DNA of 64,000 bases from Bdellovibrionales bacterium (GTDB lineage Bacteria; Bdellovibrionota; Bdellovibrionia; Bdellovibrionales; JAGQZY01). Below the pieces are notes generated by a model. It ran no database searches. It worked only from the letters and a program-made list of their open reading frames with translations, and was not told the DNA's origin. The DNA lies in contig JAYUQP010000040.1 in the NCBI GenBank assembly GCA_043757265.1, forward strand, positions 142,094 through 206,093, written 5' to 3'. The position numbers were made by a program, and so were the translations under genes. How positions within the stretch are numbered: the stretch's first letter is position 1; each line of letters begins with the position of its first letter. This document shows positions 12,581-26,559 of the stretch, piece by piece.

Positions 12581-14419
12581 TTATAAAAGATAACGAGTGG
12601 CGCGACCTTGCCCAATGCGAGAGACAATACCTAACTCATGCAATTTTGACAAGTCACGTGTCGCAGTTGGTTTGGAAACAAGCAACTTTGTAGAAAGTTC
12701 CTGCACAGATATGGACGAATCGTTTTTTAAATAATCCAAGATTTGGAGCTGTCTAAAGTTTAAGTCCTTTAGATATTTAGCCCATTTGGGCGGAATGCGA
12801 ACGCGCGTGGGTTTTGCGTGGGATGAAGTCCGAGATGCATCTTTTGCTACAACGGAAAGCTTTAGATTGTTTTTGATGATCACCTTCACCGATCGACTAA
12901 GGCTATAGCCCTCCTCGGTCAGTTGCACCCAATCGGCATGGGGGTTTAAGAGATGGCGAATCTTATTGATAGACGAATACACAAGGGAGTCATGACGAAG
13001 GGGATCGTAATCATAACCCCAAACTTCCCGAACTAGAACTTCCTTCGATTTCGGCGCATCTTTGAGAAGTGTTAAAATTTTTCGCAAAACCGAATTTAAG
13101 CTTTTCGACTTCAGAAATACGTTTCCTTTATCCAATAAAATCAAAGTGCCGGGAAGAAGATCGAAGATTAAAGACTGAGTTCCAAAGGGCAAGTTGTAGC
13201 ACTTGTGTAAAAGTCCATGATATCCACTCTTTAAAACCATCTCGGGGGCCTTGGCGTTCCCTGTCGCGACCTCGTCGAGGAGATCGCCAATAGGGTCTTC
13301 GCCCTTAGAGAAGGTGTGCGATTTTTTCGACATTCGCGCCAACATTTTTTTGTGCACAGTGCTTTGTGATTGATTGGATTTCGCATTCAGTTCCATAAAA
13401 AGGTGATCAGATTCCTGAGTCTTCTTGAGTTCCTTTAGCACCTTGATTTTCAAGCCGCTTATTTGCATCCATAAATTAAGATCTATCGTCTGATTCACAT
13501 TCTGTTCAGCAAATCGCAATATATGTAAAGCTTGGGTGTAATTTGCCTGCAGATAAAGAACATAACTCATGCGCACATTGAATAATGCCATCTGCCGACG
13601 ATTTTGACTTTTGTAAATGATATCTGACGCTTTTTCGACAGTCTGCTCAGCTTTGGTAAACTGCCCTCGTAAGATGTACTGACGAATCATTTCAAGCAGA
13701 AGCTCGCCCTTTGAGTACACGTCGCGGGTTTCGATTTTATCTAAAGCCTCTTCCAAGGGAATCAAACTTTTATCGAGTTGGAGGCCAAATTGATATTTAA
13801 ACTTTAGCACTGCAATCTCGATGGTCGGTGCCAACCAACACCTGTGCTTTTTCGCCAGACGAAGAGTTTCGGCAAAATATCGTAGACCTAGATGCACGTG
13901 CCCCGTTTGCACCAGGGAGTGGGCGAGGAGTTCTTTACTCAGCATTTCACCGAACAAAAAATCATCGGCAACGGCATTCGAAAAAGCCAGTTCAGCGTAC
14001 TTTTTCCCTTGTGAAAACCGCCCGCAAAAAAACCGGTAAAACGCAATGCCTTGGTAGATAAAAAACTTTTGGCGAGGTTCGGCACGACCACCACGAGTTT
14101 TTAGGTAAAGCAAATTCTCCACCAAAAGGCTGCGACCTTCGTTGTATTGAGAGTTGCGAATCAATCCAAGAGCGAGATAAAAACGGCAAGCACACATGGG
14201 GGATGCTGAAAGAGATTTTTTTCTAAAAAGTATCAGTGCCTTCTCAAGTTGCCCGCTAAAAACAAGACTTCCTATCCAGTACGGAAAAAGCTCGGCGTTA
14301 TTTTGCAATGTTTTATGCCCGTCGAACGTATCGCTGACTTCGGTAAAACGACCGGAAATAAAAAGGTCTTGAATCTTGTGAGTGTATAATTCCTTCAAAG
14401 TGGCCCCCCTTAAACACAC
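12581..14419 (-). CDS. Transcriptional regulator: TPR-like N-terminal region + OmpR/PhoB-type winged helix + second wHTH
   Basis: 612 aa. About 400 aa of helical repeats; then EVLVREVWGYDYDPLRHDSLVYSSINKIRHLL (Trans_reg_C-like); then ISVQELSTKLLVSKPTATRDLSKLHELGIVSRIGQGRATRYLL (DeoR/MarR-like wHTH). The GTG start sits very close to an AGGAGG, so the start is uncertain. Confidence 0.7.
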   Translation of the reverse strand: MCLRGATLKELYTHKIQDLFISGRFTEVSDTFDGHKTLQNNAELFPYWIGSLVFSGQLEKALILFRKKSLSASPMCACRFYLALGLIRNSQYNEGRSLLVENLLYLKTRGGRAEPRQKFFIYQGIAFYRFFCGRFSQGKKYAELAFSNAVADDFLFGEMLSKELLAHSLVQTGHVHLGLRYFAETLRLAKKHRCWLAPTIEIAVLKFKYQFGLQLDKSLIPLEEALDKIETRDVYSKGELLLEMIRQYILRGQFTKAEQTVEKASDIIYKSQNRRQMALFNVRMSYVLYLQANYTQALHILRFAEQNVNQTIDLNLWMQISGLKIKVLKELKKTQESDHLFMELNAKSNQSQSTVHKKMLARMSKKSHTFSKGEDPIGDLLDEVATGNAKAPEMVLKSGYHGLLHKCYNLPFGTQSLIFDLLPGTLILLDKGNVFLKSKSLNSVLRKILTLLKDAPKSKEVLVREVWGYDYDPLRHDSLVYSSINKIRHLLNPHADWVQLTEEGYSLSRSVKVIIKNNLKLSVVAKDASRTSSHAKPTRVRIPPKWAKYLKDLNFRQLQILDYLKNDSSISVQELSTKLLVSKPTATRDLSKLHELGIVSRIGQGRATRYLL

Positions 14420-14577
14420 CTCCTATTTACGAATTTGAGGAGCTATGTTATCGTCTTTCGAGTTTGTTGCATGATTCGATTGTAAAGATCAAATCAAATC
14501 GCATCAAAAGCGTGAGAGAGTGTAGGTCGATATTTAGGGGTAAATGGTCGATTTTAGGTTCAAGGGGGGCAAATTCC

Positions 14578-15342
14578 ATGAAGCTTATCAAGTGTTTGTT
14601 AGTCGTACTGATTCCATTTATGGTGGCCTGTTCAGCGGAACACAACAACGTGAGTGGTACTGGAGAAGATGGCCTCGGCAAAGCTCCGGTATGTGAACCC
14701 GGCACTGTGGTTGCTAACTGTACAGCTCCCGATCCTGGCGTCGATCCAACCGATCCCGTGCCACGACCAGTGGTTCTGGAACCAAATTACGAGTCATTGC
14801 GCAAAGAAATTTTTGTTAGCCAATGTTTGGGCTGTCACAATAGTAGTGGAATTTTTAGTTCGTACGATTTTTCTACCTACGAATCTATCACGAGTTACCA
14901 AAAACTTTTCGCGCTTCCAGCGGACGGGTCCGACAGCCGTTTTGTGCACTCGCTAGTCACGGGAAAAATGCCGCGGGAAAAACCACCCCTTCCGCCCGAA
15001 CAAATCGAAGTGATTCGACAATGGGTGGCACTTGGCCTGCCAAAGACGGCCGCGACAGTGCCTGCCAATTGCGATTTGATTGATTTTGCAACGGTGAATA
15101 CTCAGGTGTTTGAAAGCAGTTGTACGCGCTGTCACGACTTTTCATCAAAACTCGATCTTCAGTCTTACGCCAATATCAAACAGCATTTATCAAAAGTGCA
15201 ATGGGCGATAGCAAATGACAAAATGCCTCCCAAAAAGCCATTATCACCAGAGTTAAAAGACCTTGTTATTAAGTGGATCGATCAAGGCGCGCCGGAAACT
15301 GTCGTCATGCCTGCGACGTGCGAAACAAAGGACAATCCATAG
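14578..15342 (+). CDS. Dihaem c-type cytochrome lipoprotein (PSCyt1-like repeats)
   Basis: Trimmed to ATG 14578 (RBS aagggggg). Lipobox MKLIKCLLVVLIPFMVAC. Two repeats each carry CxxCH and a downstream MP: CLGCHN...GKMPREKPPL and CTRCHD...DKMPPKKPL. Confidence 0.7.
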   Translation: MKLIKCLLVVLIPFMVACSAEHNNVSGTGEDGLGKAPVCEPGTVVANCTAPDPGVDPTDPVPRPVVLEPNYESLRKEIFVSQCLGCHNSSGIFSSYDFSTYESITSYQKLFALPADGSDSRFVHSLVTGKMPREKPPLPPEQIEVIRQWVALGLPKTAATVPANCDLIDFATVNTQVFESSCTRCHDFSSKLDLQSYANIKQHLSKVQWAIANDKMPPKKPLSPELKDLVIKWIDQGAPETVVMPATCETKDNP

Positions 15343-15362: not shown

Positions 15363-16208
15363 CTAAAGGTAATGAATAACTTTATGCTTAATTAAATCGA
15401 AAACGTCACCCGATGCTAGCACATGGAGTTTTGCATTGTGCAGGGACATCGTTCGTTGGGCTTGAGCCTCGGAAATATTTGAATAAGTGATCGAAGAACC
15501 ATCGACCACGTAAACGGCGTTTGTGCCAATAATTTCCATTTCATTGCCCACGACGACGAGGGCGGTGTCTTCGTCAATGCCGATGCCCAGTATACCAGGA
15601 TTGAGGGCAACAGCTCCTAGGAGTCGACCGATTCTTCCGCGTTGTGCAAAGTGCTGATCAATCAAAACCTTTGAGATGAATCCCAAGCCTGGTTGCATGG
15701 CGCAGCTTCCAACTTTGTGAGACTCCCGGCCTTCGCTTGAAACAAGCATCGTTTGTCCCATCACTGATGCTCCAGCAGACGTCCCGGCAATTAAACCGCC
15801 ACCGCGAAAAATTTCTTCGATCCGAAACGCTGTGGGCGAACCCCCAATTTTGGTTGTTATCTTTAATTGATCACCACCGGTGAAAAAGATACTTCGAGCT
15901 CCTTTGAAAAGCTCAAGGTTTTCGGGTTTTCGGGCATCGGCCGGTTCCTCGCAGCGAAAGTGCACAATATCTTTGAGCCCAAGTTCACGAAAGGCTCGAT
16001 TGTAGGTCTCCCACATTTTTTCAGCAACCGTACTCGCAGCCGTCACCACGACTAGACGGCTGCCGTGACTCCTGCTTGCCACCTCTTTCAATATTGTCAT
16101 ATCGTGAGTTTTATCTTCGCCTCCACCAATGATGATAAGAGTTCCAGTGGTTTTAGTTTCAGCTTTTTTTTGTTTTTTAGTTTTCCGTTTGCGCGGTTTT
16201 AATTCCAT
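15363..16208 (-). CDS. cphB: Cyanophycinase (peptidase S51), no signal peptide
   Basis: 281 aa with LIIIGGGEDK, FFTGGDQ, GTSAGASVM and IDQHF blocks. The Lys-rich N-terminus overlaps the iadA 3' end by 32 nt. Confidence 0.9.
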   Translation of the reverse strand: MELKPRKRKTKKQKKAETKTTGTLIIIGGGEDKTHDMTILKEVASRSHGSRLVVVTAASTVAEKMWETYNRAFRELGLKDIVHFRCEEPADARKPENLELFKGARSIFFTGGDQLKITTKIGGSPTAFRIEEIFRGGGLIAGTSAGASVMGQTMLVSSEGRESHKVGSCAMQPGLGFISKVLIDQHFAQRGRIGRLLGAVALNPGILGIGIDEDTALVVVGNEMEIIGTNAVYVVDGSSITYSNISEAQAQRTMSLHNAKLHVLASGDVFDLIKHKVIHYL

Positions 16209-17346
16209 AAATATCCCATCCTCTCCGTGTGAGGTTTACTTCGCGGTCAAAGGTGTTCTTTCCATCTCGCTTAAAAAACTTTCCTCGAGCCATCACATGC
16301 TTTATCTGCAGATCCGTTTTATCAAACATGAGGAGATCAGCATCCATATGTGTCGCAATCTTACCTTTCGCTTCAAGACCGAGAACTTGGGCAGCGTTTT
16401 GCGAAAAATGCTGGTAGATCTCGGAGATTTCGAGTCCGCCTTTTAAGCAAGTTTCGGTCAGCACTGACCAAAGCTCGCTCGGGGAGGGGACACCCCCATC
16501 CGATGATATAGTTAAGCGATCAGCCGGGCCGCCGAGCCTTTTAAATAACAGATAATTTCTCAAAATATTCGGATCGTAGATATCAAAGTCTATATAAACT
16601 CCGCGCTTCGCGAGCTCAGCGGCTTCCTCGATCAATTTTTCAGATCGCTCGAGATGTGTTAGATAGATTTTTTCTGGCAGAATGCTATGTGTTTCGAGAA
16701 GGTCGCGGATCGTCTGTAGCCGTCGGTCACCGGGTCCCACATGAAAATGGCTGACTCCAGCTTTACCGCTCAAAATCCCGCCGACGTAGGCATCCACACA
16801 GGCGCGCGCTAGCGAATCGAGAGATGGTTCTGGAGCTCGTCGGTCGGCAATAGCAATTTCACCAACGCCAATGATTTCGGAAATAAAAAGAAGATCATCT
16901 CGCACATTGCCAGTTATTGTTTTTGGCGGAATATCATAGCCGCCAACGTAGCAATAGGCCGAAATCCCAATGTGATTAAAAGCCTTCACTTTGGCCAGTA
17001 AGTCAGACATCGTTTTTGTCGAAGTGTCCACACCCAGCGTTCCCACAGTTGTCGTAACACCGCCATCGATGAACTCACAAAGCGAGATCGGTGGGCTTTG
17101 CGAATGAAAACCTTTTTCTCCGCTTCCACCAGATAAATGATTATGGGGGTCGATGATTCCAGGAGCGATATGCAGGTTTTCGCAATCAATGATTTCCAAA
17201 ACGTCTTTTAATTTGTGTTCTAACTGTCGGTAAACGGAAAGGTCTGCCTGTCCCACCCAGGTTATCTTTTCGCCCGCGATCAAAATGTCTAGCTTTTGAA
17301 AAATTCCCTCAAATAAAATATTTGCACCACTGAGAAGATAAATCAT
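16177..17346 (-). CDS. iadA: Isoaspartyl (beta-aspartyl) dipeptidase
   Basis: Amidohydrolase with PGIIDPHNHLSGGSGE, GVGEIAIADRRAPEP, VSHFHVGPG and ISSDGG, colinear with E. coli IadA. ATG 17346 overlaps the cphA stop (TAATG); the alternative ATG 17388 would overlap cphA by 43 nt. Confidence 0.85.
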   Translation of the reverse strand: MIYLLSGANILFEGIFQKLDILIAGEKITWVGQADLSVYRQLEHKLKDVLEIIDCENLHIAPGIIDPHNHLSGGSGEKGFHSQSPPISLCEFIDGGVTTTVGTLGVDTSTKTMSDLLAKVKAFNHIGISAYCYVGGYDIPPKTITGNVRDDLLFISEIIGVGEIAIADRRAPEPSLDSLARACVDAYVGGILSGKAGVSHFHVGPGDRRLQTIRDLLETHSILPEKIYLTHLERSEKLIEEAAELAKRGVYIDFDIYDPNILRNYLLFKRLGGPADRLTISSDGGVPSPSELWSVLTETCLKGGLEISEIYQHFSQNAAQVLGLEAKGKIATHMDADLLMFDKTDLQIKHVMARGKFFKRDGKNTFDREVNLTRRGWDIYGIKTAQTEN

Positions 17347-20060
17347 TAGGTTGCTCGTAGCACTGATTCGCATAAAGCCAGTGCCCATTTTAACTTTTCT
17401 TTTGGTAATGTGCTTCGTGATTGTGCCCCTGCCTGGCTTAGCATTTTTTCGATCTCGATAATTCGATCGTAGAATGCGACCAAAAGCTCTCCGGGCTGCA
17501 ATTTTTTAATGCAGGCATCCATGGCCTGAAGCTCGTCCATAATCACCACGACTCTTTTATCTGGAAATTCAGAGCGAACAACGTCGGCCAAAAATTTCGA
17601 CATTTCGCCATACGGCCGCCCGCGCAGGGCTATATCTTCGCGAATTATGATTTCGTCAAACGAAGGAACGATGGCCCTAAGTGCATCTTTTGAAATCTCG
17701 GGGTCGCGGTCTCCGGGCAAGGCTATGATTAATCGTCTGAGTGTAAATTCGTACTGCTCGAGAGCCGTTGCGATGGCACTCATTGCATGCGCATTGTGCC
17801 CGTAATCAAGAACAATGCATGCGTTCTTCAAGTCAAAAATATTCATCCTGCCCGAATTTTGCGAACTTGGATTAAACCACCTAAGCGCATCAAAAGCACT
17901 TGTAATGTCCATGCCCACGCCGTGTGCGGCACATAGAGCTGCTAAACAATTTGATATCTGAAAGCTAATGGTACCATAAGAAGTAACTGATAGCTCACTC
18001 ACGCGACCAAGCCTTATCTCACTACTGGATGCCGCAGATGTGGTGGATGTGGCATTTGTGGCGGCTGACGCAAAAAATATTTCGCCTTTTTCAACCCAGC
18101 ATTTTGCATCGGGAGCTCGCGACGTCACTGCACGTTCAACGGCCTCCGGCGTCGTGCCGTAGATGTAAACTCTGCGTTCCATTCGTGAGTCTGCGGCACG
18201 ATCAAAAAGATTCAGAGACTCCTTACTGTCTGCGTTCAGGACAATCGTGCCATTTTTTTTGGTGTGATCTACAACAAGTGCTTTAATTTGCACTAGGTCC
18301 TTGATGCCTCGTATTCCATCTTGGCCGATGTGATCTTCGTGAACATTCGTAACAACGCCCACATCAGAGTAAGAGTATCCAAGGCCGCGTCGAAGTATTC
18401 CGCCCCGAGCTGATTCTAAAATTGCTATTTCAACTTTAGAATCAGAAAGCACTCGGCTTGCCGACACGGGTCCCGAACAGTCACCAGTTCCTGTTTTTTC
18501 TCCGCCTATCCAAATACCATCGGTCGAAGTCATTCCTGTCACGTAACCAGCTGTCGAAAACATTTTTTCGAGCATTCGCACCGTAGATGTTTTACCGTTC
18601 GTACCAGTTACGCTAATAATGGGAATGGTTGACTGTTGCCCAGCCGGATAAAGCATTTTAATGATGTCTTCGGCCACTGGCCGCGGCTGGCCTTCGCTCG
18701 GTGCAAGATGCATTCGCAAACCCGGCCCGGCATTAACTTCTATTATTTTAAAACCTTCTGAAACGGGAGCGGATATATCCGAATGAATTATGTCTACTCC
18801 GCAGATATCAAGACCAATTGTTCGCGCCGTTAATTCACAGGTCAAACGAACTGTTGGATGTAAAAGATCCGTTACGTCTTTCGCATTTCCACCGCCTGAG
18901 ATATTTGCATTTTCTCGAAGAAAAATTTTTGCGTTTTTTTCCACGACAGATTCAAGAGCGAGGTTTTGTCTTTTAAGAGACGCAAGAACACTTTCGTCAA
19001 CAATAATTCGAGTGAGCACACTGCTATGACCAACGCCCCGAAGTGGATCAGAGTTGAGCTGTTTAATAAGCTCGTTGACTGTACTTCTTCCATCACCGAG
19101 AACCGACGGAGCTAAGCGTTCGGCTGCCGCACAAACTTTGCCGCCCACAACAAGCACGCGGTAATCTTTACCAACACACATTTCTTCGATCAGAACTACC
19201 CGGCAAAATTTTTGCGCATGTTCAAATGCTCGATGCAAGCCTTGTTGTGAATCGATGTTGAGAGTGACGCCATTTCCGTGATTGCCGTCGAGAGGTTTTA
19301 TCGCGAGGGGAAAAGACAGTTCGGTTGTTGCCTCAAGAGCCTCCTCAACGGATCGGACCATTAAACCCCGCGGGACCGGAACACCTACAGACTTCAATAC
19401 AATTTTCGTTCTGTATTTATCCTGTGCCAGTTGCACGGCAAGGTGGCTGGTTTTATCTGTCACGGCAGTTTGCACATAGCGAGTGTGAATACCGTGCCCC
19501 AAACGAAGCTGGCTGCCGGTGTATGTACGTTCAACTGGAATTTTCATTTTTTTCGCAGCATCGAACAGTGCCTGACCGCTGGGCCCAAGCTTATGCTCCT
19601 CCACTAATTTCTTGATGGCTTCAATCTCTCCCTTCTTATCCGCTCTCCCAACAGTAACAACTCTCTGGATGTAGGAAAATGCGACGCGATGGCATTCGAT
19701 CATTGCCTGTTCGTCTAAATATCTGGTGATGACATTGTAGATGCCTTTTTCGCCCCCATAAATTGATTTGCCGTACGTTACACCAATTCCAACCATGGCC
19801 GAAATTTCTAGCGCGACGTGCTCGATAATGTGAGCAAAATAAGTTCCTCGTTCGAGACGCTCTAAAAAACCTCCTCTACGACCTAGAGAGCAGGTGTGCT
19901 CGATCAATCGGGGAAAATCCGCCATCAGAGTTTTGACAAAATGTGGCAAGTCCTGGCTGGATGTATCTGCAAATACTCCGAGGTCTAACCTCGTAATCAG
20001 TACGGGAAATTTGTGATAAATATTGGGCCCTCTAAGGGCGCGAACGCTAATTATTTTCAT
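17346..20060 (-). CDS. cphA: Cyanophycin synthetase
   Basis: 904 aa. Typical N-terminus MKIISVRALRGPNIYHKFPVLI, an ATP-grasp domain and a Mur-ligase-like domain (VTGTNGKTST). Confidence 0.95.
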   Translation of the reverse strand: MKIISVRALRGPNIYHKFPVLITRLDLGVFADTSSQDLPHFVKTLMADFPRLIEHTCSLGRRGGFLERLERGTYFAHIIEHVALEISAMVGIGVTYGKSIYGGEKGIYNVITRYLDEQAMIECHRVAFSYIQRVVTVGRADKKGEIEAIKKLVEEHKLGPSGQALFDAAKKMKIPVERTYTGSQLRLGHGIHTRYVQTAVTDKTSHLAVQLAQDKYRTKIVLKSVGVPVPRGLMVRSVEEALEATTELSFPLAIKPLDGNHGNGVTLNIDSQQGLHRAFEHAQKFCRVVLIEEMCVGKDYRVLVVGGKVCAAAERLAPSVLGDGRSTVNELIKQLNSDPLRGVGHSSVLTRIIVDESVLASLKRQNLALESVVEKNAKIFLRENANISGGGNAKDVTDLLHPTVRLTCELTARTIGLDICGVDIIHSDISAPVSEGFKIIEVNAGPGLRMHLAPSEGQPRPVAEDIIKMLYPAGQQSTIPIISVTGTNGKTSTVRMLEKMFSTAGYVTGMTSTDGIWIGGEKTGTGDCSGPVSASRVLSDSKVEIAILESARGGILRRGLGYSYSDVGVVTNVHEDHIGQDGIRGIKDLVQIKALVVDHTKKNGTIVLNADSKESLNLFDRAADSRMERRVYIYGTTPEAVERAVTSRAPDAKCWVEKGEIFFASAATNATSTTSAASSSEIRLGRVSELSVTSYGTISFQISNCLAALCAAHGVGMDITSAFDALRWFNPSSQNSGRMNIFDLKNACIVLDYGHNAHAMSAIATALEQYEFTLRRLIIALPGDRDPEISKDALRAIVPSFDEIIIREDIALRGRPYGEMSKFLADVVRSEFPDKRVVVIMDELQAMDACIKKLQPGELLVAFYDRIIEIEKMLSQAGAQSRSTLPKEKLKWALALCESVLRAT

Positions 20061-20083
20061 CGTATTCCTTTTAAATTGTACGT

Positions 20084-20944
20084 TTAATGCAACTCATAGA
20101 TGGGCGCCATCAGGCAAGATACGCTACCACCACCCAAAATAAATTCCGACATGTCAGCGACGGTATGGAATTTTCCCATTTTTTTGAGTTCGTGGGACAT
20201 CACTTGGCTCTGTCCACCTGAAACAACGGTGTTTCCGATTTCGATACAGTTGAGAGCAAAGTTTAGAGCGTCTGCTCTCGGCACGTTCACGATCCGCGAA
20301 AAATGTTTGGACTTTCGAAGAACGTTCCAACTCATTTTCGAAAACGCACCTTCATACGCGAAAGCAACGCCATCTGAGGTCACAAAGAGCGCAGTGTCTA
20401 AATGGTAAAATAGCGGATCGATCAATTGGAGCGGGACCACTTCTATTTCCATGGCCTTAGCAAATTCGGCAGCTGCTTGCAGCTGTGTTCTGAAGCCGTA
20501 TCCAATAAATGCCTTTTTTTGCGAGGGTAACACGGCCACATCTCCCCCTTCGAGAAAAGCTTTTCCCTGGATTAATTTTTTAACGCCGAGATGAGAAAGG
20601 TGTTGAATCCTTGCCTTTATCTCGCGCTTCCGCTCGAGATGACGATAGGTGGCTAAAAACGCAGTCAATTTATTTTGTCTTTTCAAAATCACCGCGATGT
20701 CTTTTACAAAAACACTGTCAAAGCAATTGTGGACAAACGGAATCTCCGATACGTGAGCACCACGGGCTCGCGCAAAATTCAATAGGTTTAAATGCTGCAA
20801 TTGTGCGCTTCCCTTATTTACTCTACCCACTTTCATATGTGGGTTGATGGACCATTTGACATCGTAGACACAACTTTCAATGTGAGATCCTGTGTGATGA
20901 CAGCGAGCCCGGCCAACAATAAAATGGGGATGCTTGGAACTCAT
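20084..20944 (-). CDS. Guanidino-group-modifying enzyme (amidinotransferase/DDAH/arginine-dihydrolase fold)
   Basis: 286 aa, colinear with DDAH-type enzymes: FDSVFVKD, LEGGDVAV, FYHLDTAL and the C-terminal catalytic Cys block GGGSVSCLMAPI. Its ATG overlaps the upstream stop (ATGA). Confidence 0.75.
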   Translation of the reverse strand: MSSKHPHFIVGRARCHHTGSHIESCVYDVKWSINPHMKVGRVNKGSAQLQHLNLLNFARARGAHVSEIPFVHNCFDSVFVKDIAVILKRQNKLTAFLATYRHLERKREIKARIQHLSHLGVKKLIQGKAFLEGGDVAVLPSQKKAFIGYGFRTQLQAAAEFAKAMEIEVVPLQLIDPLFYHLDTALFVTSDGVAFAYEGAFSKMSWNVLRKSKHFSRIVNVPRADALNFALNCIEIGNTVVSGGQSQVMSHELKKMGKFHTVADMSEFILGGGSVSCLMAPIYELH

Positions 20945-21978
20945 AGATTTAGCTTCAACTGTTGTTTGTATCGAAGGAAACAGCGTTCTCCTGCTTTAAG
21001 TCTCATCAAAGCACCTTCTGCCAGGGCTTGAGCCACTTCGGAATTTTCTCTGACTAGCGAAAAAATCACTTCCGTATTCCAGTCGGCTGAGTGTTTAATA
21101 TCTACTGTAGAATGAAGAAGAAAATAGCGTTGCCCGGTTGCAGACAAGCCAAGTCGTTTAAGTCCTGCATGGACTTTTTTTGCACGACCTGGGGCCGTAA
21201 GTTCGATCACTCCTAGCGCCCCAACAGAATGGTAAGCATAATCACGATTCACCGCCATGCCGAGTAATATATTGGCAAGCGCTATGGACTCTGGGACAAC
21301 TCGATCTTGATTACCGGAAGCGACATTCATCTCGCTAGCCAATGATTCGAGCATGGGACCGTGCATAGAAATTTCTTTGCCTCGTCCCATTTCATCCCAA
21401 TAGTTTCGCGCCATCTCAAGCTTTGCCTGAGTTGGAAATTTAATTTGTGTAAGTGCCACGAGATCGTCAAAACCGGCCTCTCCCGCCACTTCCTGTTCCA
21501 CAAACCATTTCATCTGCTCTGTGTCAGCCTCACTTTCGAGCCAATCAAAAAGGGGATCGTGCTGTCCAGGTCCCGACTTTTCGAGCGAGACAAACCATTC
21601 AACAAATTCGTGCGCATCATTCGGTACATCGCCTGCGAGCGCAGCCGCAGCGGTGCGTTCGGTAGAAAGCATTGTTCGCTCTCGAACCAACATACCAACT
21701 TCGTCAAATCCAGAACTTCCGTTTTGTGATGGTAAGCGAGGCGATAATCGCCCATGATTAAATTTGGCGAGTGTTCGATGTAAGCGTTCAAAATCAAGAG
21801 CCGGAAATTGTGGAGTCTCCAGCGAAATATTTTGCACGGGTTTATGTATTGACTGTATTTGAGTCGATAAGTCGGCCGACAACTTATCTGAATCTTCATT
21901 CTGTAAATAATTTAAAGATTTAGACGACAGTGTCGCTGGCCGACGATTTGATAGATTAACAAATGTTTTAGCAAGCAT
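20941..21978 (-). CDS. Haem-oxygenase-like di-iron (iron-containing redox enzyme, PF14518-type) protein
   Basis: The track ORF starts at TTG 21999; ATG 21978 has the better RBS (ggagaaaatATG). Candidate metal-ligand helices: EQEVAGE, DEMGRGKEISMHGPML, GVIELTAP, LLHSTVDIKHSADW. It has an N-terminal extension of about 130 aa with no recognisable family. Confidence 0.7.
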   Translation of the reverse strand: MLAKTFVNLSNRRPATLSSKSLNYLQNEDSDKLSADLSTQIQSIHKPVQNISLETPQFPALDFERLHRTLAKFNHGRLSPRLPSQNGSSGFDEVGMLVRERTMLSTERTAAAALAGDVPNDAHEFVEWFVSLEKSGPGQHDPLFDWLESEADTEQMKWFVEQEVAGEAGFDDLVALTQIKFPTQAKLEMARNYWDEMGRGKEISMHGPMLESLASEMNVASGNQDRVVPESIALANILLGMAVNRDYAYHSVGALGVIELTAPGRAKKVHAGLKRLGLSATGQRYFLLHSTVDIKHSADWNTEVIFSLVRENSEVAQALAEGALMRLKAGERCFLRYKQQLKLNL

Positions 21979-22020
21979 ATTTTCTCCAGTTGTAGACAAA
22001 GCGATGGTAGAAAATAAAAG

Positions 22021-22036
22021 TGCAACTCGCAGGCCA
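22021..22036 (-). promoter_or_regulatory. Sigma-54 (-24/-12) promoter candidate for the HDO-GME-cphA-iadA-cphB operon
   Basis: The minus strand reads TGGCCTGCGAGTTGCA (TGGC-N7-TTGC with correct GG/GC spacing). The -12 GC is 44 nt upstream of ATG 21978. Confidence 0.6.
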
Positions 22037-22278
22037 AATAGGGAGTGAGTTGATCGTTAGGCTTCGAAAATGTGAAATCGTTTTAAACGATAAAAAAAAT
22101 AATTTTGTGAAAAGTTTTCTGAATTGAATTTTGCTTGATTAGTTTTGTTGAAAGGTGAGGAGGAGATGCTGAACGTGATATATTCATCATGAGGAGGAAT
22201 TATCCCTTTAAGAAAACACCATAAGGCGCCTGCTAAATAGCAAGAAATAGATGAGTTCGACGTATGCAGAGCACTAGA

Positions 22279-22599
22279 TTACTTTTTGCATGTAATAAAT
22301 TGTGGAAGACAGCGTGATTTATCCGGCACTTTTTGCAAACATTTGTCGGTCACAGATTGTCTAGCCGCAGTTTCTGAAAGCTCTGTTGCCGTGAAATCGC
22401 CGTCAAAAGGCGTGTGGATGTCACATGTGACATTTGCAACAATCATAAATCCATTGGACCGCGTGAGAGTATTTTCCATTTTTTCTACTTTTTGCTTGAG
22501 CTCTTTTATTTGTTTTTCTAGTTCCTCAACACGCTTTTGAGATTCGTCTGCAAAAACGAGTGTGAATGAAAATAAAAGAGTGCAAAAAACCGAAATCAT
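22279..22599 (-). CDS. Small secreted coiled-coil protein (hypothetical)
   Basis: 106 aa, signal-like N-terminus MISVFCTLLFSFTLVFA, RBS aaggaa. It starts 10 nt after the S9 peptidase stop. Confidence 0.5.
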   Translation of the reverse strand: MISVFCTLLFSFTLVFADESQKRVEELEKQIKELKQKVEKMENTLTRSNGFMIVANVTCDIHTPFDGDFTATELSETAARQSVTDKCLQKVPDKSRCLPQFITCKK

Positions 22600-22609
22600 A
22601 CGTTCCTTA

Positions 22610-24532
22610 TTATTTCAGATGTTTCTCAAAAAAATCAAGCGCGTACGTATTAAGTAGAACGATATTGGACCGTTTTGCGACGCCGTGACCTTCGTCAGGA
22701 AAAATCACAAGTTTTGAGTTCTTATTCATCTTTTCAATTGTTTCGTAGAACTGCACCGCCTCGCCCACTGGGACCCGGGGGTCCGTGGCACCGTGGGCGA
22801 TCATCAAAGGTTTCTTAACCTGATCAATATACGTAACTGGTGACAGCTTCAACATCGCATCACGCTCTTTGGATGGGTCTCCATACTCGTTCATACGCAG
22901 AGCGCGCCGGTAGGGTGCAGTATTCTCGATAAACGTGATCAGGCTGCTCATACCCACGATTGCAAGACCAGCATCGTAAAAATCGGCAAACATCGACACA
23001 CCAACAAGGGTGGAATAGCCGCCGTAGCTTCCACCGGTGATTCCAATTTTAGGCGCTACGCCGTTTATTACCCAGTTTTTCTTGATAAACTCGGCACAAT
23101 CCCGAATATCAGTAATCACTTTAAGTCGCTGTACGCCATTGTCGGCCTGCAACCACTTTTTTCCATAACCATCGCTACCGCGCACATTCGGCGCAACATA
23201 AACAAAACCCTTTTCGGTATACAAATTATACAACGGTGTAAATCGCGGAGTAAATTGCGACTCAGGACCGCCATGAAATTGAACGATCACCGGACAAGCT
23301 TCGGTTTTGCACTTTGCGGAGCGCCAGACAAACATAGGAACATCGGTGCCGTCATGGGCCTTGTAGGATTCGAGTGTTGGCTTCACATAACCGAGTGTGT
23401 TGATTTCGGGAGTGGATGGAAGCACCCACTCCTGCACTTTTTTGGTTTGCAAATCGTAAACAAAGTTTTTGCGAGGAGCATTGTGATACTCTGCTGAATA
23501 GCTGAGGTAGCGATTGTTTGTAGAAAATGCACCAACATAGGCCTGCTGTGCATCCTTTAAGCCGGGGAGAGTTGTTTTTTTCGAAGTTGCTAAATTTACT
23601 AATTGTAATCGTGCGTAGCCCTTTTCGTTAATAACATAAACCATGTGTTTGCGATTCTCTGACACCTTAAACTCGCTAATGTCCGCATCAATATTTGTTC
23701 CCCAAGGTGTAAGCTTGCCGTTTTTCAGCGTGTAGAGTTTGCGAAAGTCGGCAATTTTGTTGGTGAGCACGAGGAACTCGTCCTGGGTTTTAAACGCCAA
23801 TTTAAAATCTTCCAATTCATTTTGACCAAGCAGCGGCGACTTTGTCTTCGTTTTCAAATCGAAAACAAAATGTTCATTTTGCATGCTGCCTTTAAGCAGA
23901 GTCAGAATAGCTTTTCCTTTCAAAATATCAGAAAGTGTCCAAATTCCAGATTCGTCCCACACCACTTCGTGAGAGTCGGCAGCTAAGTTGTATTTGTAAA
24001 TAGAGTACGAATCCGGAGCTTTATCATTTGTGCGATAATAAAGAGATTTTGAGTCCTCAGTGAAACCTAAGAATCCCGTTTGGTGTTTGGAGTTGTAATA
24101 AACTTTGCGCAGTTCCCCACCACCGATTTTCATTAAGAAAATGCCTGGGTTTTCGTCACCCTTTGAATCCCGCGACACAATTATAAACTCGCTGTTTGGG
24201 CTCATTCCTACGAGGCGTGAGGCATCTTCCCCGGCCGTGAGCTGAATGGGAAAACTTTTTGGTCCGTTCAGTTTCCAAATTTGCAAGGACCCAGTGACAT
24301 TCCAATTCATAAAAAGGGAGCGGCCGTCACCAGTCACCAGGCCGTCAGATGGCGCACGAATGTCTACCAACTTTTCTATTATATTTTTCAAATCGGCGTT
24401 GGGTGTAGGCGGTGCATATTTAGCAAGAGTCTCAGGTGAGATACTATTCAAGCCGTAACCTGAGTATTTTGTCTTAGATGCAGTACTGCAGCCGATGACT
24501 AAAATTGCTGAAAATAAAGATAGGTATTTCAT
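22610..24532 (-). CDS. S9 family serine peptidase (prolyl oligopeptidase/acylaminoacyl peptidase-like) lipoprotein
   Basis: 640 aa. Lipobox LVIGCS, a beta-propeller-like N-terminal half, and the catalytic triad context GGSYGGY, HGATDPRVP and FPDEGHG. Confidence 0.85.
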   Translation of the reverse strand: MKYLSLFSAILVIGCSTASKTKYSGYGLNSISPETLAKYAPPTPNADLKNIIEKLVDIRAPSDGLVTGDGRSLFMNWNVTGSLQIWKLNGPKSFPIQLTAGEDASRLVGMSPNSEFIIVSRDSKGDENPGIFLMKIGGGELRKVYYNSKHQTGFLGFTEDSKSLYYRTNDKAPDSYSIYKYNLAADSHEVVWDESGIWTLSDILKGKAILTLLKGSMQNEHFVFDLKTKTKSPLLGQNELEDFKLAFKTQDEFLVLTNKIADFRKLYTLKNGKLTPWGTNIDADISEFKVSENRKHMVYVINEKGYARLQLVNLATSKKTTLPGLKDAQQAYVGAFSTNNRYLSYSAEYHNAPRKNFVYDLQTKKVQEWVLPSTPEINTLGYVKPTLESYKAHDGTDVPMFVWRSAKCKTEACPVIVQFHGGPESQFTPRFTPLYNLYTEKGFVYVAPNVRGSDGYGKKWLQADNGVQRLKVITDIRDCAEFIKKNWVINGVAPKIGITGGSYGGYSTLVGVSMFADFYDAGLAIVGMSSLITFIENTAPYRRALRMNEYGDPSKERDAMLKLSPVTYIDQVKKPLMIAHGATDPRVPVGEAVQFYETIEKMNKNSKLVIFPDEGHGVAKRSNIVLLNTYALDFFEKHLK

Positions 24533-24590: not shown

Positions 24591-25550
24591 TTATGTCATT
24601 GCATTAAAAACCTGTTCGAGTGTTGAGTCCATCCAGCGGTTGTAGCCAAAAGGACCTCGGCCTTGAGAAAGATATCCCATATGGCCCCCAGTGTCTTCAA
24701 GATGCAGATGGACATAGGAGCTTTCGCGCGCCGAAAGGTATGGCTGCCACGGAATAAATGGATCATCCTTAGACATCAAAATAAATGTGGGAGTTTTGAT
24801 TTTTCCCAGGTGCGGCGCTGTTGAGCACTGCAAATAATAATCATTGGCGTTTTTAAAACCGCCAAGCGGTGCCGTATAGAGCTCGTCCACATCAGATAAA
24901 TAAGCCCAACGTGGAATAATTATTGGCGGGACGAAGTTTTTTTCCTCGCGGGATTTAATTTCTTTTCGACAGCCATTTACAAACCATAAATCGTAAAAAC
25001 GATTGAACCCTTGTTTAAGACTTACAGACGACGCTTTCAAGTCTGTGGGACCATTAACAGCGATAGCTTGATCGGGAAGATGTTCCCCGCGGATCCCAGT
25101 AACCAACGAAAGCACAGCATTAGCCCCTAAGGAAAACCCTACAGCAATTAATTGTTTTTTCGGAAATTGCTTTCTACAAAACGCGACCACCTCGGAAACA
25201 TCTTCGCCCCGGCCCGAATGATAGGGTCCGCGTGCCAGACCGGCACCTTCGCCACAACCTCTGTGGTTGACCAAAAAAACCGAATGACCAAGGTTTAAAC
25301 TCAGCTTCGCCATTCGACCCATGTACTTGGAATCGACGCTTCCGATAAGACCGTGAAAAAAAATGAGCAATGTGGAACTTGTACCCTCGAAGTAACGGGC
25401 GGCAAGCTGGTCGCCATCGGGCAATCTTATTTTTAAATTTTTGTAAGGGATATCGGTTCCCCTAGACGGGAGCCCATAGGCAACAAGAGTTTGCTGGTGC
25501 CCGCCGCGCGCCCAAAAAGGCGGCGTGCAAGGCTCAATATTAAGATTCAC
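24591..25550 (-). CDS. Alpha/beta hydrolase (YheT/ABHD1-3-like)
   Basis: 319 aa with FWARGGHQQTL, FHGLIGS and the nucleophile elbow GFSLGAN. It overlaps the upstream methyltransferase gene by 11 nt. Confidence 0.8.
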   Translation of the reverse strand: MNLNIEPCTPPFWARGGHQQTLVAYGLPSRGTDIPYKNLKIRLPDGDQLAARYFEGTSSTLLIFFHGLIGSVDSKYMGRMAKLSLNLGHSVFLVNHRGCGEGAGLARGPYHSGRGEDVSEVVAFCRKQFPKKQLIAVGFSLGANAVLSLVTGIRGEHLPDQAIAVNGPTDLKASSVSLKQGFNRFYDLWFVNGCRKEIKSREEKNFVPPIIIPRWAYLSDVDELYTAPLGGFKNANDYYLQCSTAPHLGKIKTPTFILMSKDDPFIPWQPYLSARESSYVHLHLEDTGGHMGYLSQGRGPFGYNRWMDSTLEQVFNAMT

Positions 25551-26559
25551 GCACGGCGCTTACAGATTTTGAGAAAAAACCCCGCGATGCGCGCACAGGT
25601 GATTCGATAAACTTACGGAGCTCATCCTCGAGCGGATGCTGCACATAATTTTTATAAAAAGGTTCATGGTAACTAATCGGAAATTTTTCAAGGGCCCAAC
25701 CAAGGTGAGGCGCGTCTCCCTCTTGGATAGAATCCACAAGAGATAAAACACCACCCACTTTTAAAACACGCCAAGCTTCTTTTAGAACTGTCGCTCGATT
25801 TTTATGCGGAAGCTCGTGAAATAAAAACGAGCACGTAACGACATCGAAGTGTAAATCCTTAAACGGCATCTCCTCGGCATTAGCCTGCAAAAAGCTGACG
25901 CGTGGAAATTTTTTCAAGCTGCTCTGCGCTTGCTTCAAATAGGGAAAACTTAAATCCACTGCTGTTATATTTGCCTTTGGAAATGTCAGGGCAAGATCAC
26001 GGGTTAAACTACCCGGGCCGCAAGCTACGTCGAGAATATTTATTTCCGCATCTCGCGCAAAAACGTCCCGTGCTGGAGGAATTGCCAATCGCCGCATGGT
26101 TTGTGCAGTGCCGTTAAATAGTATTTCCACTTGGTGATCGTAGATGCGCGCCGACTCTTCACTTAGATAACCATCAGTTTGAAAGTGAAAGTTGCGAGAA
26201 TAGTAATCGGGCAGATCTTTCAAATACTGTTCTGCAGATCCCGAAAAATCCTGATGTTTTTTGGTCTTCATCCGACGTGCCACTTGAACCGCGTCAGCCC
26301 ATACCTTTACCAGTTGTAAAGTGTGAGTGAGAGGTGAACCTAAAGAAACTACACTTGCTGGATAAACGTTATTTTTAATGTTCTGTTCGTCCCATTTGTG
26401 CAGAGCATAGATGTCCTTGAATAAAACTTTTAATTCTTCAATTTTCGGACCTTCAGCATTACGCCCATGCAGATAAAGCTGCGATAAAATAAGAAGCGGA
26501 AGGTTTTCGGAAAAGTAGAGAGCCGATTTTCCAAGCGATTTGTACAGAGGTGAAATCAT
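25540..26559 (-). CDS. Class I SAM-dependent methyltransferase
   Basis: 339 aa. Motif I ILDVACGPGSLT, post-I VDLS, and FDVVTCSFLFHELP. Confidence 0.8.
   Translation of the reverse strand: MISPLYKSLGKSALYFSENLPLLILSQLYLHGRNAEGPKIEELKVLFKDIYALHKWDEQNIKNNVYPASVVSLGSPLTHTLQLVKVWADAVQVARRMKTKKHQDFSGSAEQYLKDLPDYYSRNFHFQTDGYLSEESARIYDHQVEILFNGTAQTMRRLAIPPARDVFARDAEINILDVACGPGSLTRDLALTFPKANITAVDLSFPYLKQAQSSLKKFPRVSFLQANAEEMPFKDLHFDVVTCSFLFHELPHKNRATVLKEAWRVLKVGGVLSLVDSIQEGDAPHLGWALEKFPISYHEPFYKNYVQHPLEDELRKFIESPVRASRGFFSKSVSAVRES

Follow-up and report, generated by a model that had tools for sequence, protein, structure and literature searches.

Along the minus strand of the window, by which we mean the whole 64-kb stretch of DNA that was analysed, five genes follow one another in the order gene 1-gene 2-cphA-iadA-cphB. 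Gene 1 (20941..21978) encodes a predicted haem-oxygenase-like di-iron enzyme (HDO) of 345 aa when read from the ATG at 21978, which has GGAG 5 nt upstream and is the same start as in a protein database entry (P0001). An alternative TTG start (21999..20941, minus strand) gives 352 aa, and the residue numbers used here for gene 1 are those of this longer form. Gene 2 (20084..20944) encodes a putative Cys hydrolase of 286 aa, single-domain and guanidino-modifying. The first-pass annotation had described two open reading frames of these sizes together with a set of motifs, and all of them are present on the minus strand. The ATGA in which the stop of gene 1 overlaps the start of gene 2 (20941..20944), also claimed there, is real on direct reading of the sequence, and translation of the two genes is coupled in the window. 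Gene 2 is separated from cphA by a spacer of 23 nt (20061..20083), which on direct reading carries the Shine-Dalgarno-like, ribosome-binding-like sequence AAGGAA, and a sequence scan of this spacer found no terminator-like site.

The three downstream genes are those of cyanophycin metabolism. The product of cphA (17346..20060; cyanophycin synthetase 1, 904 aa) scores 989 bits with TIGR02068 against a cut-off of 850, and a profile search recovers its Cyanophycin_syn, ATP-grasp and Mur ligase domains. The iadA-like gene (16177..17388; isoaspartyl, or beta-aspartyl, dipeptidase, 403 aa as listed) has Amidohydrolase domains and reaches 273 bits with TIGR01975, under the cut-off of 331 and matched as two stretches; as called, its open reading frame runs 43 nt into the end of cphA. 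Similarly, the called frame of cphB (15363..16208; cyanophycinase, 281 aa, Peptidase_S51) runs 32 nt into the end of iadA, and its product scores 264 bits with TIGR02069 against a cut-off of 126.6. The cphA1 and cyanophycinase genes of the window thus both pass equivalog cut-offs and lie contiguously within 5 kb with the IadA-like gene between them, which matches the cphA1, cyanophycinase and iadA cluster type counted in a published survey (PMC10206079). On the 5' side of gene 1, a 300-nt region (21979..22278, minus strand) is AT-rich on direct reading, and the promoter of the five-gene operon would presumably lie here; a sigma-70 consensus scan of this region gave no convincing match, and the number of matches over the whole region was no higher than in shuffled sequence. 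The HDO and the hydrolase are almost certainly co-transcribed with cphA, iadA and cphB.

The translation of gene 1 contains the motifs EQEVAGE, DEMGRG..MH, IELT and HSTVDIKH. Its sole Pfam match is PF14518, at 129.1 bits against a cut-off of 28.9 (E 2e-37), with residues 164-337 spanning the whole model and the protein ending 15 residues past the domain; the same Pfam search found no cupin domain. A set of three histidines and three carboxylates (E203, H213, E266, H296, D300 and H303) is invariant together with Y292 in 81 of 81 relatives, and so are E170 and E174, the former aligning to a Glu of HrmI, which is classed as 3H/3C. The AlphaFold2 model has an overall pLDDT of 81, with values of 77-97 in most 10-residue blocks from residue 70 onward and one block at 68, and when it was used as a Foldseek query the top 35 matches were all HDOs or haem-oxygenase-like proteins. 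The family assignment made in the first-pass annotation is therefore borne out by profile score, by invariant ligands and by predicted fold. The same annotation had called the first ~130 residues an unassignable extension, which holds for residues 1 to ~65, lineage-specific and predicted with low confidence, but not for residues ~70-163, which are conserved in the family, form confidently predicted helices and align with the N-terminal helices of HrmI.

Among solved structures, the nearest relative of gene 1 is HrmI (E 1.5e-27 by sequence; 163 bits by profile search), which together with BelK represents the L-lysine N-epsilon-oxygenases of hormaomycin and belactosin biosynthesis. The two folds superpose with a TM-score of 0.72-0.76 over ~288 columns at 28% identity, with similar N-terminal auxiliary helices, and the NYWDEMG motif is common to both. 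In BelK, the residues E205, H215, E269, H299, D303, H306 and Y295 have been validated by mutation, the Tyr being essential (PMC11611017). Gene 1 matches this set, its ligands also aligning with the equivalent residues of HrmI, and the spacing differs by a single residue, from first His to second Glu (53 versus 54 in BelK). Its Y292 occupies the position of BelK Y295, four residues before the first His of core helix 3. In the ranking by fold the six best matches are N-oxygenases, HrmI first and then RohS, which makes 2-nitroimidazole and shares 15% identity with gene 1; SznF (E 0.012, TM-score 0.54-0.60) stands behind CADD, and BesC is also listed. Judged by sequence and model, gene 1 would be a di-iron, O2-activating enzyme of the HDO superfamily, belonging to the clade of amino-acid side-chain N-oxygenases (HrmI/BelK, then RohS and SznF), and its chemistry is probably N-oxygenation. 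The surroundings differ from those of HrmI and BelK, which reside in actinomycete NRPS clusters, whereas the gene 1 family lies beside methyltransferase, hydrolase or cyanophycin genes. Their cluster partners, the Fe/2OG oxygenase BelL/HrmJ and the DAP-epimerase homologue BelM/HrmT, are absent from the operon of the window and its flanking genes, nor are these types among the recurrent neighbours of the family.

Gene 2 carries the motifs FVKD, EGGD, HLDT and GGGSVSC. It passes the broad Pfam model PF19420 (DDAH_eukar) with 63 bits against a cut-off of 23, and it passes no NCBIfam equivalog cut-off. Its best NCBIfam match is DDAH-Mtb (NF045659, 139.1 bits, cut-off 300), followed by the arginine dihydrolase equivalogs (NF052232, 118.5 bits, cut-off 450; NF052231, 109.1 bits, cut-off 1025) and by other DDAH equivalogs (NF045660, 57.8 bits, cut-off 340; NF045658, 35.4 bits, cut-off 450). 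The AlphaFold2 model (pLDDT 94.4) finds the cyanobacterial enzymes ArgZ/AgrE first in Foldseek (6jv0, 6jv1 and 6lrf; TM-score 0.87-0.93, rmsd 1.6-1.9 A, ~25% identity), with DDAH behind them at 0.73-0.84. D76, R105, E108, EGGD132-135, R152, H181-L-D183, N232 and C277 are invariant, and C277 and H181 align to the catalytic residues of ArgZ. The guanidino-modifying fold with catalytic Cys and His, as first proposed, is thus sustained, and we consider gene 2 a putative Cys hydrolase of the guanidino-modifying superfamily whose nearest relatives, by modelled structure, are the ArgZ/AgrE arginine dihydrolases. ArgZ (Sll1336) and AgrE (Alr4995) share with it the catalytic Cys as well as the motifs GGD and FYHLDT, the His and Asp of the latter included; their bifunctional form has in addition a C-terminal ornithine-cyclodeaminase-like domain, which gene 2 lacks. 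By position, D76, R105 and R152 are probably the counterparts of those ADI and DDAH residues to which the free alpha-amino and alpha-carboxylate groups bind.

DDAH has the same fold and Cys/His chemistry as gene 2, but two residues past the catalytic His it has a Lys where gene 2 has an Asp. The H-x-D arrangement is of the ADI/ArgZ type and H-x-K of the DDAH type, the Lys making room for the dimethylamino group (PMC11659421). Gene 2, with H181-x-D183 and an invariant Asp, thus bears the ADI/ArgZ signature. It differs from ArgZ at another place, where Lys81-Asp82, a Lys-Asp pair found throughout the HDO-linked clade, stands in place of Ala-Asn71; the actinobacterial homologues carry Ala-Asn, as ArgZ does. 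In ArgZ, changing this Asn to Ser (N71S) leaves a covalent intermediate trapped (PDB entry). Because gene 2 scores below the equivalog cut-offs and has Asp82 in place of Asn71, whether its reaction would stop at citrulline or proceed to ornithine cannot be read from homology.

The HDO family is found in at least 588 species and more than six phyla, including Proteobacteria, Bdellovibrionota and Myxococcota, with ~50-60% identity between phyla. We surveyed the neighbourhoods of 80 sampled HDO loci with flanks of up to 10 kb on each side. The usual neighbour is an N-methyltransferase of the MTS/HemK type, adjacent in 53 of the 80 and often less than 100 nt away on the same strand, while a gene 2 homologue adjoins the HDO in 15. 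When sampled gene 2 homologues were taken as the starting point, all three had a divergent HDO adjoining and a methyltransferase within 3 kb. In Legionella, the methyltransferase and the hydrolase are fused into one protein, which contains an NPPF motif. Eight loci with HDO and hydrolase have no methyltransferase within 10 kb (seven from Corallococcus/Myxococcaceae and one from a Kofleriaceae MAG), and in 18 of the 80 the HDO stands without methyltransferase, gene 2 homologue or cphA. Catalase or KatG adjoins the HDO in some genomes, and nitroreductase genes recur among its neighbours. The module consists of the HDO, usually with the methyltransferase, to which the gene 2 hydrolase is added in Bdellovibrionota, Myxococcota and Legionella. 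The family has no curated name, and no publication on it was found in the searchable literature.

Only part of this distribution concerns cyanophycin. The first-pass annotation had presented the pair as a tailoring module specific to cyanophycin, and this does not stand: in 13 of the 15 loci that combine HDO and gene 2 homologue, cphA is missing from the flanks retrieved, which reached up to 10 kb on each side, and it is likewise missing around the three sampled gene 2 homologues and in the other single neighbourhoods that were inspected. The pair is part of an autonomous, widespread module rather than an invention of the operon in the window. That annotation had also named, as evidence that would count against it, a wide occurrence of the pair without cphA in a known pathway; wide occurrence without cphA is what the survey revealed, membership of a known pathway is not. 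Cyanophycin cannot be the obligatory context of the module, since cphA is lacking from the flanks (up to 10 kb on each side) of most copies. The linkage is nevertheless non-random. Within 10 kb of the HDO, cphA occurs in five of the 80 loci, in at least three architectures and lineages, and the probability of this by chance lies between 2e-11 and 2e-4 when cphA1 is taken to occur in 6% of genomes (PMC10206079). Locus L045 has the order HDO-cphA-iadA-cphB, with the HDO reading frame overlapping cphA and the hydrolase transcribed divergently. At L063 a methyltransferase is followed by cphB-iaaA-cphA and then the HDO, and at L084 a methyltransferase-HDO pair is followed by cphB and cphA, neither locus having a gene 2 homologue; L007 is a cphA-linked locus carrying the methyltransferase-hydrolase fusion. 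The recurring element beside cphA is the HDO together with the methyltransferase, and not gene 2 (L063, L084). The cphA-linked HDOs do not form a single clade, and the module has joined cyanophycin genes several times. The first-pass annotation knew of no described cyanophycin cluster with an HDO partner, and in the searchable literature we found none either.

We propose that the pair forms a module for arginine-directed hydrolysis and N-oxygenation that is fed by arginine from cyanophycin, an explanation that we favour while placing it a little short of an even chance. In this scheme cyanophycinase and IadA would free L-arginine from the polymer, the hydrolase would attack the guanidino carbon through Cys277 and His181 to give ammonia and citrulline or ornithine, and the HDO, with O2, would N-oxygenate a nitrogen in the side chain of either arginine or the hydrolysis product. 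An arginine-directed function of the pair is plausible; that the substrate derives from arginine, that the HDO N-oxygenates it, which step comes first and what is formed are parts of the scheme that we infer. In cyanobacteria, the classic cyanophycin producers, arginine dihydrolase is the physiological sink for cyanophycin-derived arginine, and the physiological logic of ArgZ/AgrE, in which the released arginine is broken down for its nitrogen, fits gene 2. Against the scheme, the nearest characterised HDO acts on lysine rather than arginine, at 28-30% identity. Moreover, no homologue of the family methyltransferase was found anywhere in the 64-kb window, so that the pathway would be incomplete or different here if the methyltransferase is essential for making the HDO substrate.

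The same neighbours could also be arranged into a route resembling that of streptozotocin, in which the methyltransferase would make N-omega-methyl-L-arginine as SznE does, the HDO would N-hydroxylate the methylguanidine as the HDO domain of SznF does, and the DDAH/ArgZ-like hydrolase would release citrulline and a methylated or hydroxylated amine; the gene for the methyltransferase would in this genome have to lie beyond the window. A precedent is documented in SznE and SznF, where an arginine-guanidino methyltransferase and an HDO-cupin N-oxygenase together act on the guanidino group of free arginine, and the logic of a methyltransferase paired with an HDO is alike. The route agrees with the methyltransferase being the commonest HDO neighbour, with its fusion to the hydrolase in Legionella and with the dimethylargininase model as top NCBIfam match of gene 2. 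The family methyltransferase is HemK/PrmC/RsmC-like, with NPPF in the Legionella fusion, and enzymes of this class place methyl groups on planar nitrogens of amino, amide or guanidine-like type; the substrate of the family methyltransferase could, however, be protein or RNA, as for the nearest named relatives. The family methyltransferase is absent from the window and from within 10 kb of the HDO in the eight loci mentioned above, gene 2 has H-x-D instead of the H-x-K that accommodates dimethylamino groups, and the similarity of the HDO to SznF is marginal. SznF has a 3H/4C site with a seventh ligand, Glu189, from auxiliary helix 2. It also has a C-terminal cupin, which gene 1 lacks, and N-N bond formation is therefore not expected. 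As far as the available part of its description goes, the streptozotocin pathway has no counterpart of the hydrolase partner. We regard this route as unlikely. Less probable again is that gene 2 alone serves cyanophycin, as an ArgZ-like deiminase or dihydrolase mobilising arginine nitrogen, with the HDO unrelated or peripheral, for instance a stress-linked oxidase that was carried along. The very high structural similarity of gene 2 to ArgZ/AgrE and the role of arginine dihydrolase in cyanobacteria would suit such a division, as would the HDOs that lie beside catalase or KatG or have none of the three partners. It is at odds with L063 and L084, which have cphA and HDO with no hydrolase, and with L045, where it is the HDO that overlaps cphA and the hydrolase that is divergent; the ATGA coupling in the window and the reciprocal adjacency in three of three hydrolase homologues also argue for joint function.

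A different substrate level is suggested by mangotoxin biosynthesis, where MboA, MboE, MboC and MboD bring an HDO, a peptidyl-arginine deiminase of the guanidino-modifying fold and ATP-grasp ligases together in one operon, and where MboE and MboA act on the ligase-made tripeptide Leu-Ala-Arg (PMC13185094). These are the same three enzyme classes as in the window, CphA being an ATP-grasp/Mur-type ligase, and in the mangotoxin case they act on a ligase-installed arginine residue. By analogy, the hydrolase might deiminate the Arg of beta-Asp-Arg or of cyanophycin and the HDO might oxidise the modified side chain, giving a modified polymer or dipeptide; the position of genes 1 and 2 upstream of the synthetase inside the operon, and not beside degradative genes only, would agree with this. 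We consider it quite improbable, however, as sequence similarity is not detectable either to MboA (BLASTP E 1.4) or to MboE (E 0.13), both comparisons giving short segments only with Mbo sequences machine-read from a PDF, as gene 2 keeps D76, R105 and R152, the likely binders of free alpha-amino and alpha-carboxylate groups, and as most module loci have neither cphA nor another ligase nearby. MboA itself is an acetylenase acting on the tripeptide and not an N-oxygenase, and no MboB-like reductase was noticed in the operon of the window. Lastly, the HDO could carry an amino-acid-like substrate through a different HDO-type reaction, for example C-C cleavage, desaturation or a CADD-like self-sacrifice. 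HDOs with identical ligand sets do very different chemistry, and even HrmI and BesC, with near-identical sets, diverge on lysine (PMC13108848); CADD and BesC are both among the fold matches of gene 1. The best matches by sequence and fold are nonetheless N-oxygenases, HrmI by a wide margin and then RohS, with SznF after CADD, and the Tyr essential in BelK is conserved, which leaves this the least probable of the four alternatives, with a slim chance at most. RohS offers a further comparison with NnhA, a nitrohydrolase of the guanidino-modifying fold that removes a nitro group, illustrating that the product of an HDO can be the substrate of such an enzyme; RohS serves biosynthesis in one organism and NnhA resistance in another, with no common operon, and NnhA lacks the amino-acid-binding residues that gene 2 retains. 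SznE/SznF, MboA/MboE and RohS/NnhA are all analogies to the pair and not homologues of it.

The arginine-directed module may be placed in a wider setting, in which cyanophycin is not just a nitrogen store and serves as the feedstock reservoir for a dedicated, widespread pathway of arginine N-oxygenation, a more tentative idea that we think doubtful though somewhat better than the alternatives above. The HDO, mostly with the methyltransferase and sometimes with the ArgZ-like hydrolase, would then yield an N-hydroxy, nitroso or nitro derivative, often N-methylated, of a guanidine or amine, or alternatively hydroxylamine, N-methylhydroxylamine, nitrite or NO. A reactive product would be in keeping with the catalase/KatG and nitroreductase genes that recur nearby. 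If true, hundreds of bacterial species would possess a new non-haem, O2-dependent route leading from arginine to oxidised nitrogen.

The HDO class is expanding rapidly, and nearly all of its recently characterised members have brought novel chemistry to light. For the family described here, gene neighbours point to the guanidino group of arginine from three sides, namely the N-methyltransferase, the ArgZ-like hydrolase and the recurrent cyanophycin genes, which makes for an unusually well-constrained substrate hypothesis. The two extra enzymes heading the cyanophycin operon suggest a previously undescribed way of processing arginine. Such a module would add the first oxidative branch to a cyanophycin pathway so far described as polymerisation and hydrolysis only, and it would show that some non-cyanobacterial cyanophycin operons have an arginine-disposal enzyme of their own. 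Should the product turn out to be a reactive nitrogen species, or an amino acid with a nitro or hydroxylamino group, the finding would bear on bacterial signalling, on biocatalytic N-oxygenation and on the physiology of predators among the Bdellovibrionota and Myxococcota.

The cyanophycin operon of the window consists of five closely packed genes on the minus strand: gene 1 for the haem-oxygenase-like di-iron enzyme (HDO; 21999/21978..20941) and gene 2 for the guanidino-modifying hydrolase (20944..20084), both read as ORFs in the window, followed by cphA (20060..17346), an iadA-like dipeptidase gene (17388..16177) and the cyanophycinase gene cphB (16208..15363). Curated models confirm cphA (TIGR02068, 989 bits against a cut-off of 850) and the cyanophycinase (TIGR02069, 264 bits against 126.6); the iadA-like product stays below the TIGR01975 cut-off with 273 bits against 331, in two matching stretches. 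As called, the iadA-like ORF shares 43 nt with the end of cphA and, at its own end, 32 nt with the cphB ORF; the true starts of both genes may therefore lie further downstream. Every motif quoted by the first-pass annotation is present in the translations of genes 1 and 2, and the ATGA overlap that it described, in which the TGA of gene 1 overlaps the ATG of gene 2, is seen in the sequence. The start of cphA follows gene 2 at 23 nt, with an AAGGAA inside the spacer, where a scan for terminator-like sites found none. Since a GGAG is located 5 nt before the gene 1 ATG at 21978, the 345-aa product is favoured; the protein database entry P0001 starts at this same ATG. A consensus terminator scan gave a few weak stem-loop matches within gene 1, in counts that did not exceed those of shuffled sequence, and a promoter scan 5' of gene 1 yielded nothing convincing, again with counts not above shuffled sequence, so that we infer co-transcription of the five genes from their spacing.

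Just upstream of the operon a 640-aa peptidase of the S9 prolyl-oligopeptidase family with a signal-peptide-like N-terminus is encoded on the minus strand (22610-24532); 'S9 family peptidase' genes adjoin some cphA-cyanophycinase clusters and are candidate cryptic isoaspartyl dipeptidases (Sharon et al., PMC10206079). Between it and gene 1 is a 106-aa ORF (22279-22599, minus strand) whose N-terminus is hydrophobic and whose middle part resembles a coiled coil. A Pfam search gave this ORF no family above cut-off, and gene calling also places it on a separate metagenome contig with an identical HDO (L088:205-525). Downstream of cphB, at a distance of about 1 kb, the minus strand encodes a protein of 612 aa (12581-14419) that combines TPR-like repeats with a DeoR/MarR-type helix-turn-helix at its C-terminus and could be a regulator; a plus-strand cytochrome-c-like gene (14464-15342) is placed between its gene and cphB.

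The family assignments of the HDO and the hydrolase are close to certain. Gene 1 covers the full PF14518 model with 129 bits, and a search of the NCBIfam profiles gives it no named family. Its sole strong solved relative is HrmI (E 1.5e-27; 163 bits by family-profile search), a di-iron L-lysine N-oxygenase, and similarity to SznF is marginal (E 0.012). In the AlphaFold2 model (pLDDT 81, with residues 1-35 and 52-60 below 50, in the 352-aa numbering) the fold is entirely helical from residue 70 on, and Foldseek places HrmI at the top (TM 0.72-0.76, 28% identity over ~288 columns), followed by RohS, CADD, SznF, FlcD and BesC. The 130-aa N-terminal extension, which the first-pass annotation considered unassignable, consists mostly of conserved auxiliary helices that are also present in HrmI; what remains of that description is the first ~65 residues, which are lineage-specific and predicted with low confidence. 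In the HrmI orthologue BelK, mutation has proven the ligands E205, H215, E269, H299, D303 and H306, and Y295 is essential (PMC11611017). The gene 1 counterparts are E203, H213, E266, H296, D300 and H303, plus Y292. Their spacing is equal but for the stretch from the first His to the second Glu (53 against 54). All seven of these residues, and E170, E174 and D202 as well, show no variation in 81/81 family members.

Gene 2 passes the broad Pfam model DDAH_eukar with 63 bits and stays under all NCBIfam equivalog cut-offs (139 against 300 for DDAH-Mtb, 118 against 450 for arginine dihydrolase). Its AlphaFold2 model (pLDDT 94.4) fits the ArgZ and AgrE arginine-dihydrolase domains best (TM 0.87-0.93, rmsd 1.6-1.9 A), whereas the fit to bacterial and human DDAH is clearly poorer (TM 0.73-0.84, rmsd 3.6-4.6 A). 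Invariant in the family are D76, R105, E108, E132-G-G-D135, R152, H181-L-D183, N232 and C277. As a rule of the superfamily, Cys acts as nucleophile and His as base, the amino-acid backbone is gripped by an Asp and two Arg, and Asp at His+2 forms the ADI-type guanidinium clamp, where DDAHs have Lys (PMC11659421). Judged by their order along the chain, D76, R105 and R152 would be the backbone binders, and because Asp (D183) stands at His+2 in place of the Lys of DDAHs, gene 2 is ADI/ArgZ-like at this position. Every HDO-linked hydrolase carries a clade-specific Lys81-Asp82, the pair being Ala-Asn in ArgZ and in actinobacterial 'dimethylargininases'; the Asn aligned to Asp82 is N71 of ArgZ, whose N71S mutant traps the covalent intermediate (title of PDB 6juz). 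Metagenomes were scanned for gene 2 relatives in order to find further operons laid out like that of the window; the one relative obtained, at 40% identity on a 2.3-kb contig, was uninformative.

HDO homologues at 50-65% identity number in the thousands, and in a scan of one genome per species they are carried by at least 588 species, including Bdellovibrionota, Myxococcota, many Alphaproteobacteria, Burkholderiales, Legionella, Fibrobacterota, Thermoanaerobaculia and Gemmataceae; among the matches listed, the closest relatives of the window's HDO are from Bdellovibrionales MAGs, and the window's HDO itself occurs there on metagenome contigs only. Neighbours were counted by targeted tblastn on the best 80 of the at least 588 loci, with flanks of up to 10 kb per side, instead of by single-linkage clustering of neighbour ORFs, which was polluted by spurious antisense ORFs in high-GC loci. 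Among these best 80, a third protein of ~320 aa adjoins the HDO in 53, mostly directly upstream on the same strand; a gene 2 homologue adjoins it in 15, nearly always divergent and limited to Bdellovibrionota, Myxococcota and Legionella; cphA lies within 10 kb in five; and 18 loci have none of the three. Reciprocally, all three sampled gene 2 homologues (B. bacteriovorus, Aggregicoccus and one MAG) adjoin a divergent HDO, with the methyltransferase within 3 kb. Complete modules are present, for example, in Bdellovibrio bacteriovorus GCA_001592735.1 (L091: HDO, AZI86_11515 and methyltransferase) and in L045. The co-directional order HDO-hydrolase-cphA of the window was seen nowhere else in the best 80 loci, and the metagenome scan gave no close relative; in one locus (L055) the hydrolase precedes the HDO.

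The ~320-aa neighbour belongs to the class-I SAM methyltransferases, of the MTS/HemK/PrmC/RsmC type that methylates planar nitrogens. Legionella lytica encodes it as a fusion with the hydrolase, a protein of 611-619 aa with an NPPF motif. When six members of this family were searched against the window by tblastn, no match was obtained at E < 0.01. A UbiE-type methyltransferase at 25540-26559 was considered as the missing partner and rejected, because it has only the SAM-binding motif in common with the HDO-associated family. The gene for this UbiE/Methyltransf_11-type protein (339 aa) shares 11 nt with that for an alpha/beta hydrolase (319 aa); the pair (24591-26559, minus strand) is oriented like gene 1 and located 2.6 kb upstream of it. 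HDOs with different partners differ only by conservative, lineage-correlated changes (G/A, M/L, I/V, F/Y, A/S, I/L), and comparison of their ligand and second-sphere positions found no difference. Since these positions are the same whatever the partner, the family probably performs one reaction everywhere, and since the lineage-correlated changes are all conservative, nothing indicates another substrate for the window's HDO.

Several further neighbours were observed in relatives' loci. In three unrelated loci the gene next to the HDO or to its methyltransferase encodes a large catalase (L041:6841-9069, L093:7823-9934) or the catalase-peroxidase KatG (L073:7594-9822), a possible sign of peroxide release or of a reactive product. 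In one divergent HDO-hydrolase pair the DDAH-like gene has a nitroreductase-family gene (L086:6577-7404) as its immediate neighbour; this single case would fit a nitro or N-oxygenated product. In Corallococcus exiguus a gene of the fatty-acid-hydroxylase superfamily (PF04116, membrane di-iron; L002/L003:6178-6927) adjoins the DDAH-like gene, and the methyltransferase is not nearby.

The five cphA-linked HDO loci differ in architecture. In a Bdellovibrionales MAG (L045) methyltransferase and hydrolase are divergent from HDO-cphA-iadA-cphB, with overlapping HDO and cphA ORFs; in Caulobacter hibisci (L063) a complete cphA-iaaA-cphB cluster is found between methyltransferase and HDO, genes that are normally adjacent; in L084 methyltransferase-HDO is followed by cphB and cphA; and in L020, a short fragment, cphA is divergent from the HDO. 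In L. lytica (L007) the order is fusion, HDO, asparagine-synthase-like gene, GCS2 ligase, cphA and cphB. Here (L004/L007; about 8035-9894 in L007) the hydrolase-methyltransferase fusion is divergent from the HDO, the asparagine-synthase-like amidotransferase and the GCS2 carboxylate-amine ligase are placed between the module and cphA/cphB, and transposase and resolvase genes on the side away from cphA/cphB suggest a mobile context. Save for those of the window, L045 and L007, the cphA-linked HDOs are not mutual nearest relatives. Of complete genomes, 6% carry cphA1, and clustering of cphA1 with folA, a housekeeping gene taken as control, was never observed (PMC10206079). The probability of at least five co-locations by chance in 80 loci is ~1e-10, or 2e-5 to 2e-4 supposing cphA in every genome, and the association of HDO and cphA is thus real; it is also facultative. 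The first-pass annotation had proposed HDO and hydrolase as an arginine-tailoring module of the cyanophycin operon, of which the arginine-directed function is favoured, but the association with cyanophycin is one of the HDO with its methyltransferase and not of gene 2 specifically.

The superfamilies of both enzymes are already known. In the full-text literature searched, with most subscription journals outside its scope, no paper joins cyanophycin with HDOs, which agrees with the first-pass statement that no described cyanophycin cluster is known to have an HDO partner, and none joins 'iron-containing redox enzyme' with amidinotransferase. Two bioinformatics papers on cyanophycin do not mention neighbours of HDO or hydrolase type, a 2026 HDO review has no HDO with a guanidino-modifying partner among its members, and a 2026 mangotoxin paper mined HDOs adjoining ATP-grasp ligases with no mention of cyanophycin (PMC13185094). 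No description appears to exist of the orthologous HDO family, of its three-gene module or of its repeated coupling to cyanophycin.

The presence of two guanidino-/amine-directed enzyme classes, the planar-nitrogen specificity of the methyltransferase class, the repeated recruitment of the module to genes of Asp-Arg polymer synthesis and breakdown, and the ArgZ precedent all suggest that the module targets the arginine side chain. One rival is a methylarginine route like that of SznE/SznF, which requires a methyltransferase that is not seen in the window. The hydrolase alone might matter for cyanophycin with the HDO peripheral, yet this is contradicted by the HDO being the cphA-linked partner. 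As in mangotoxin, the substrate might also be the dipeptide or the polymer itself; gene 1 and gene 2, however, have no homology to MboA/MboE, so that this system serves as an analogy only, and gene 2 keeps the residues predicted to bind a free amino acid. HDO chemistry other than N-oxygenation is a further alternative. The reading we prefer, tentatively and at a little under an even chance, is a module for arginine-directed hydrolysis and N-oxygenation: in this operon, arginine derived from cyanophycin would feed the hydrolase and the HDO, and its side chain would be hydrolysed and N-oxygenated.
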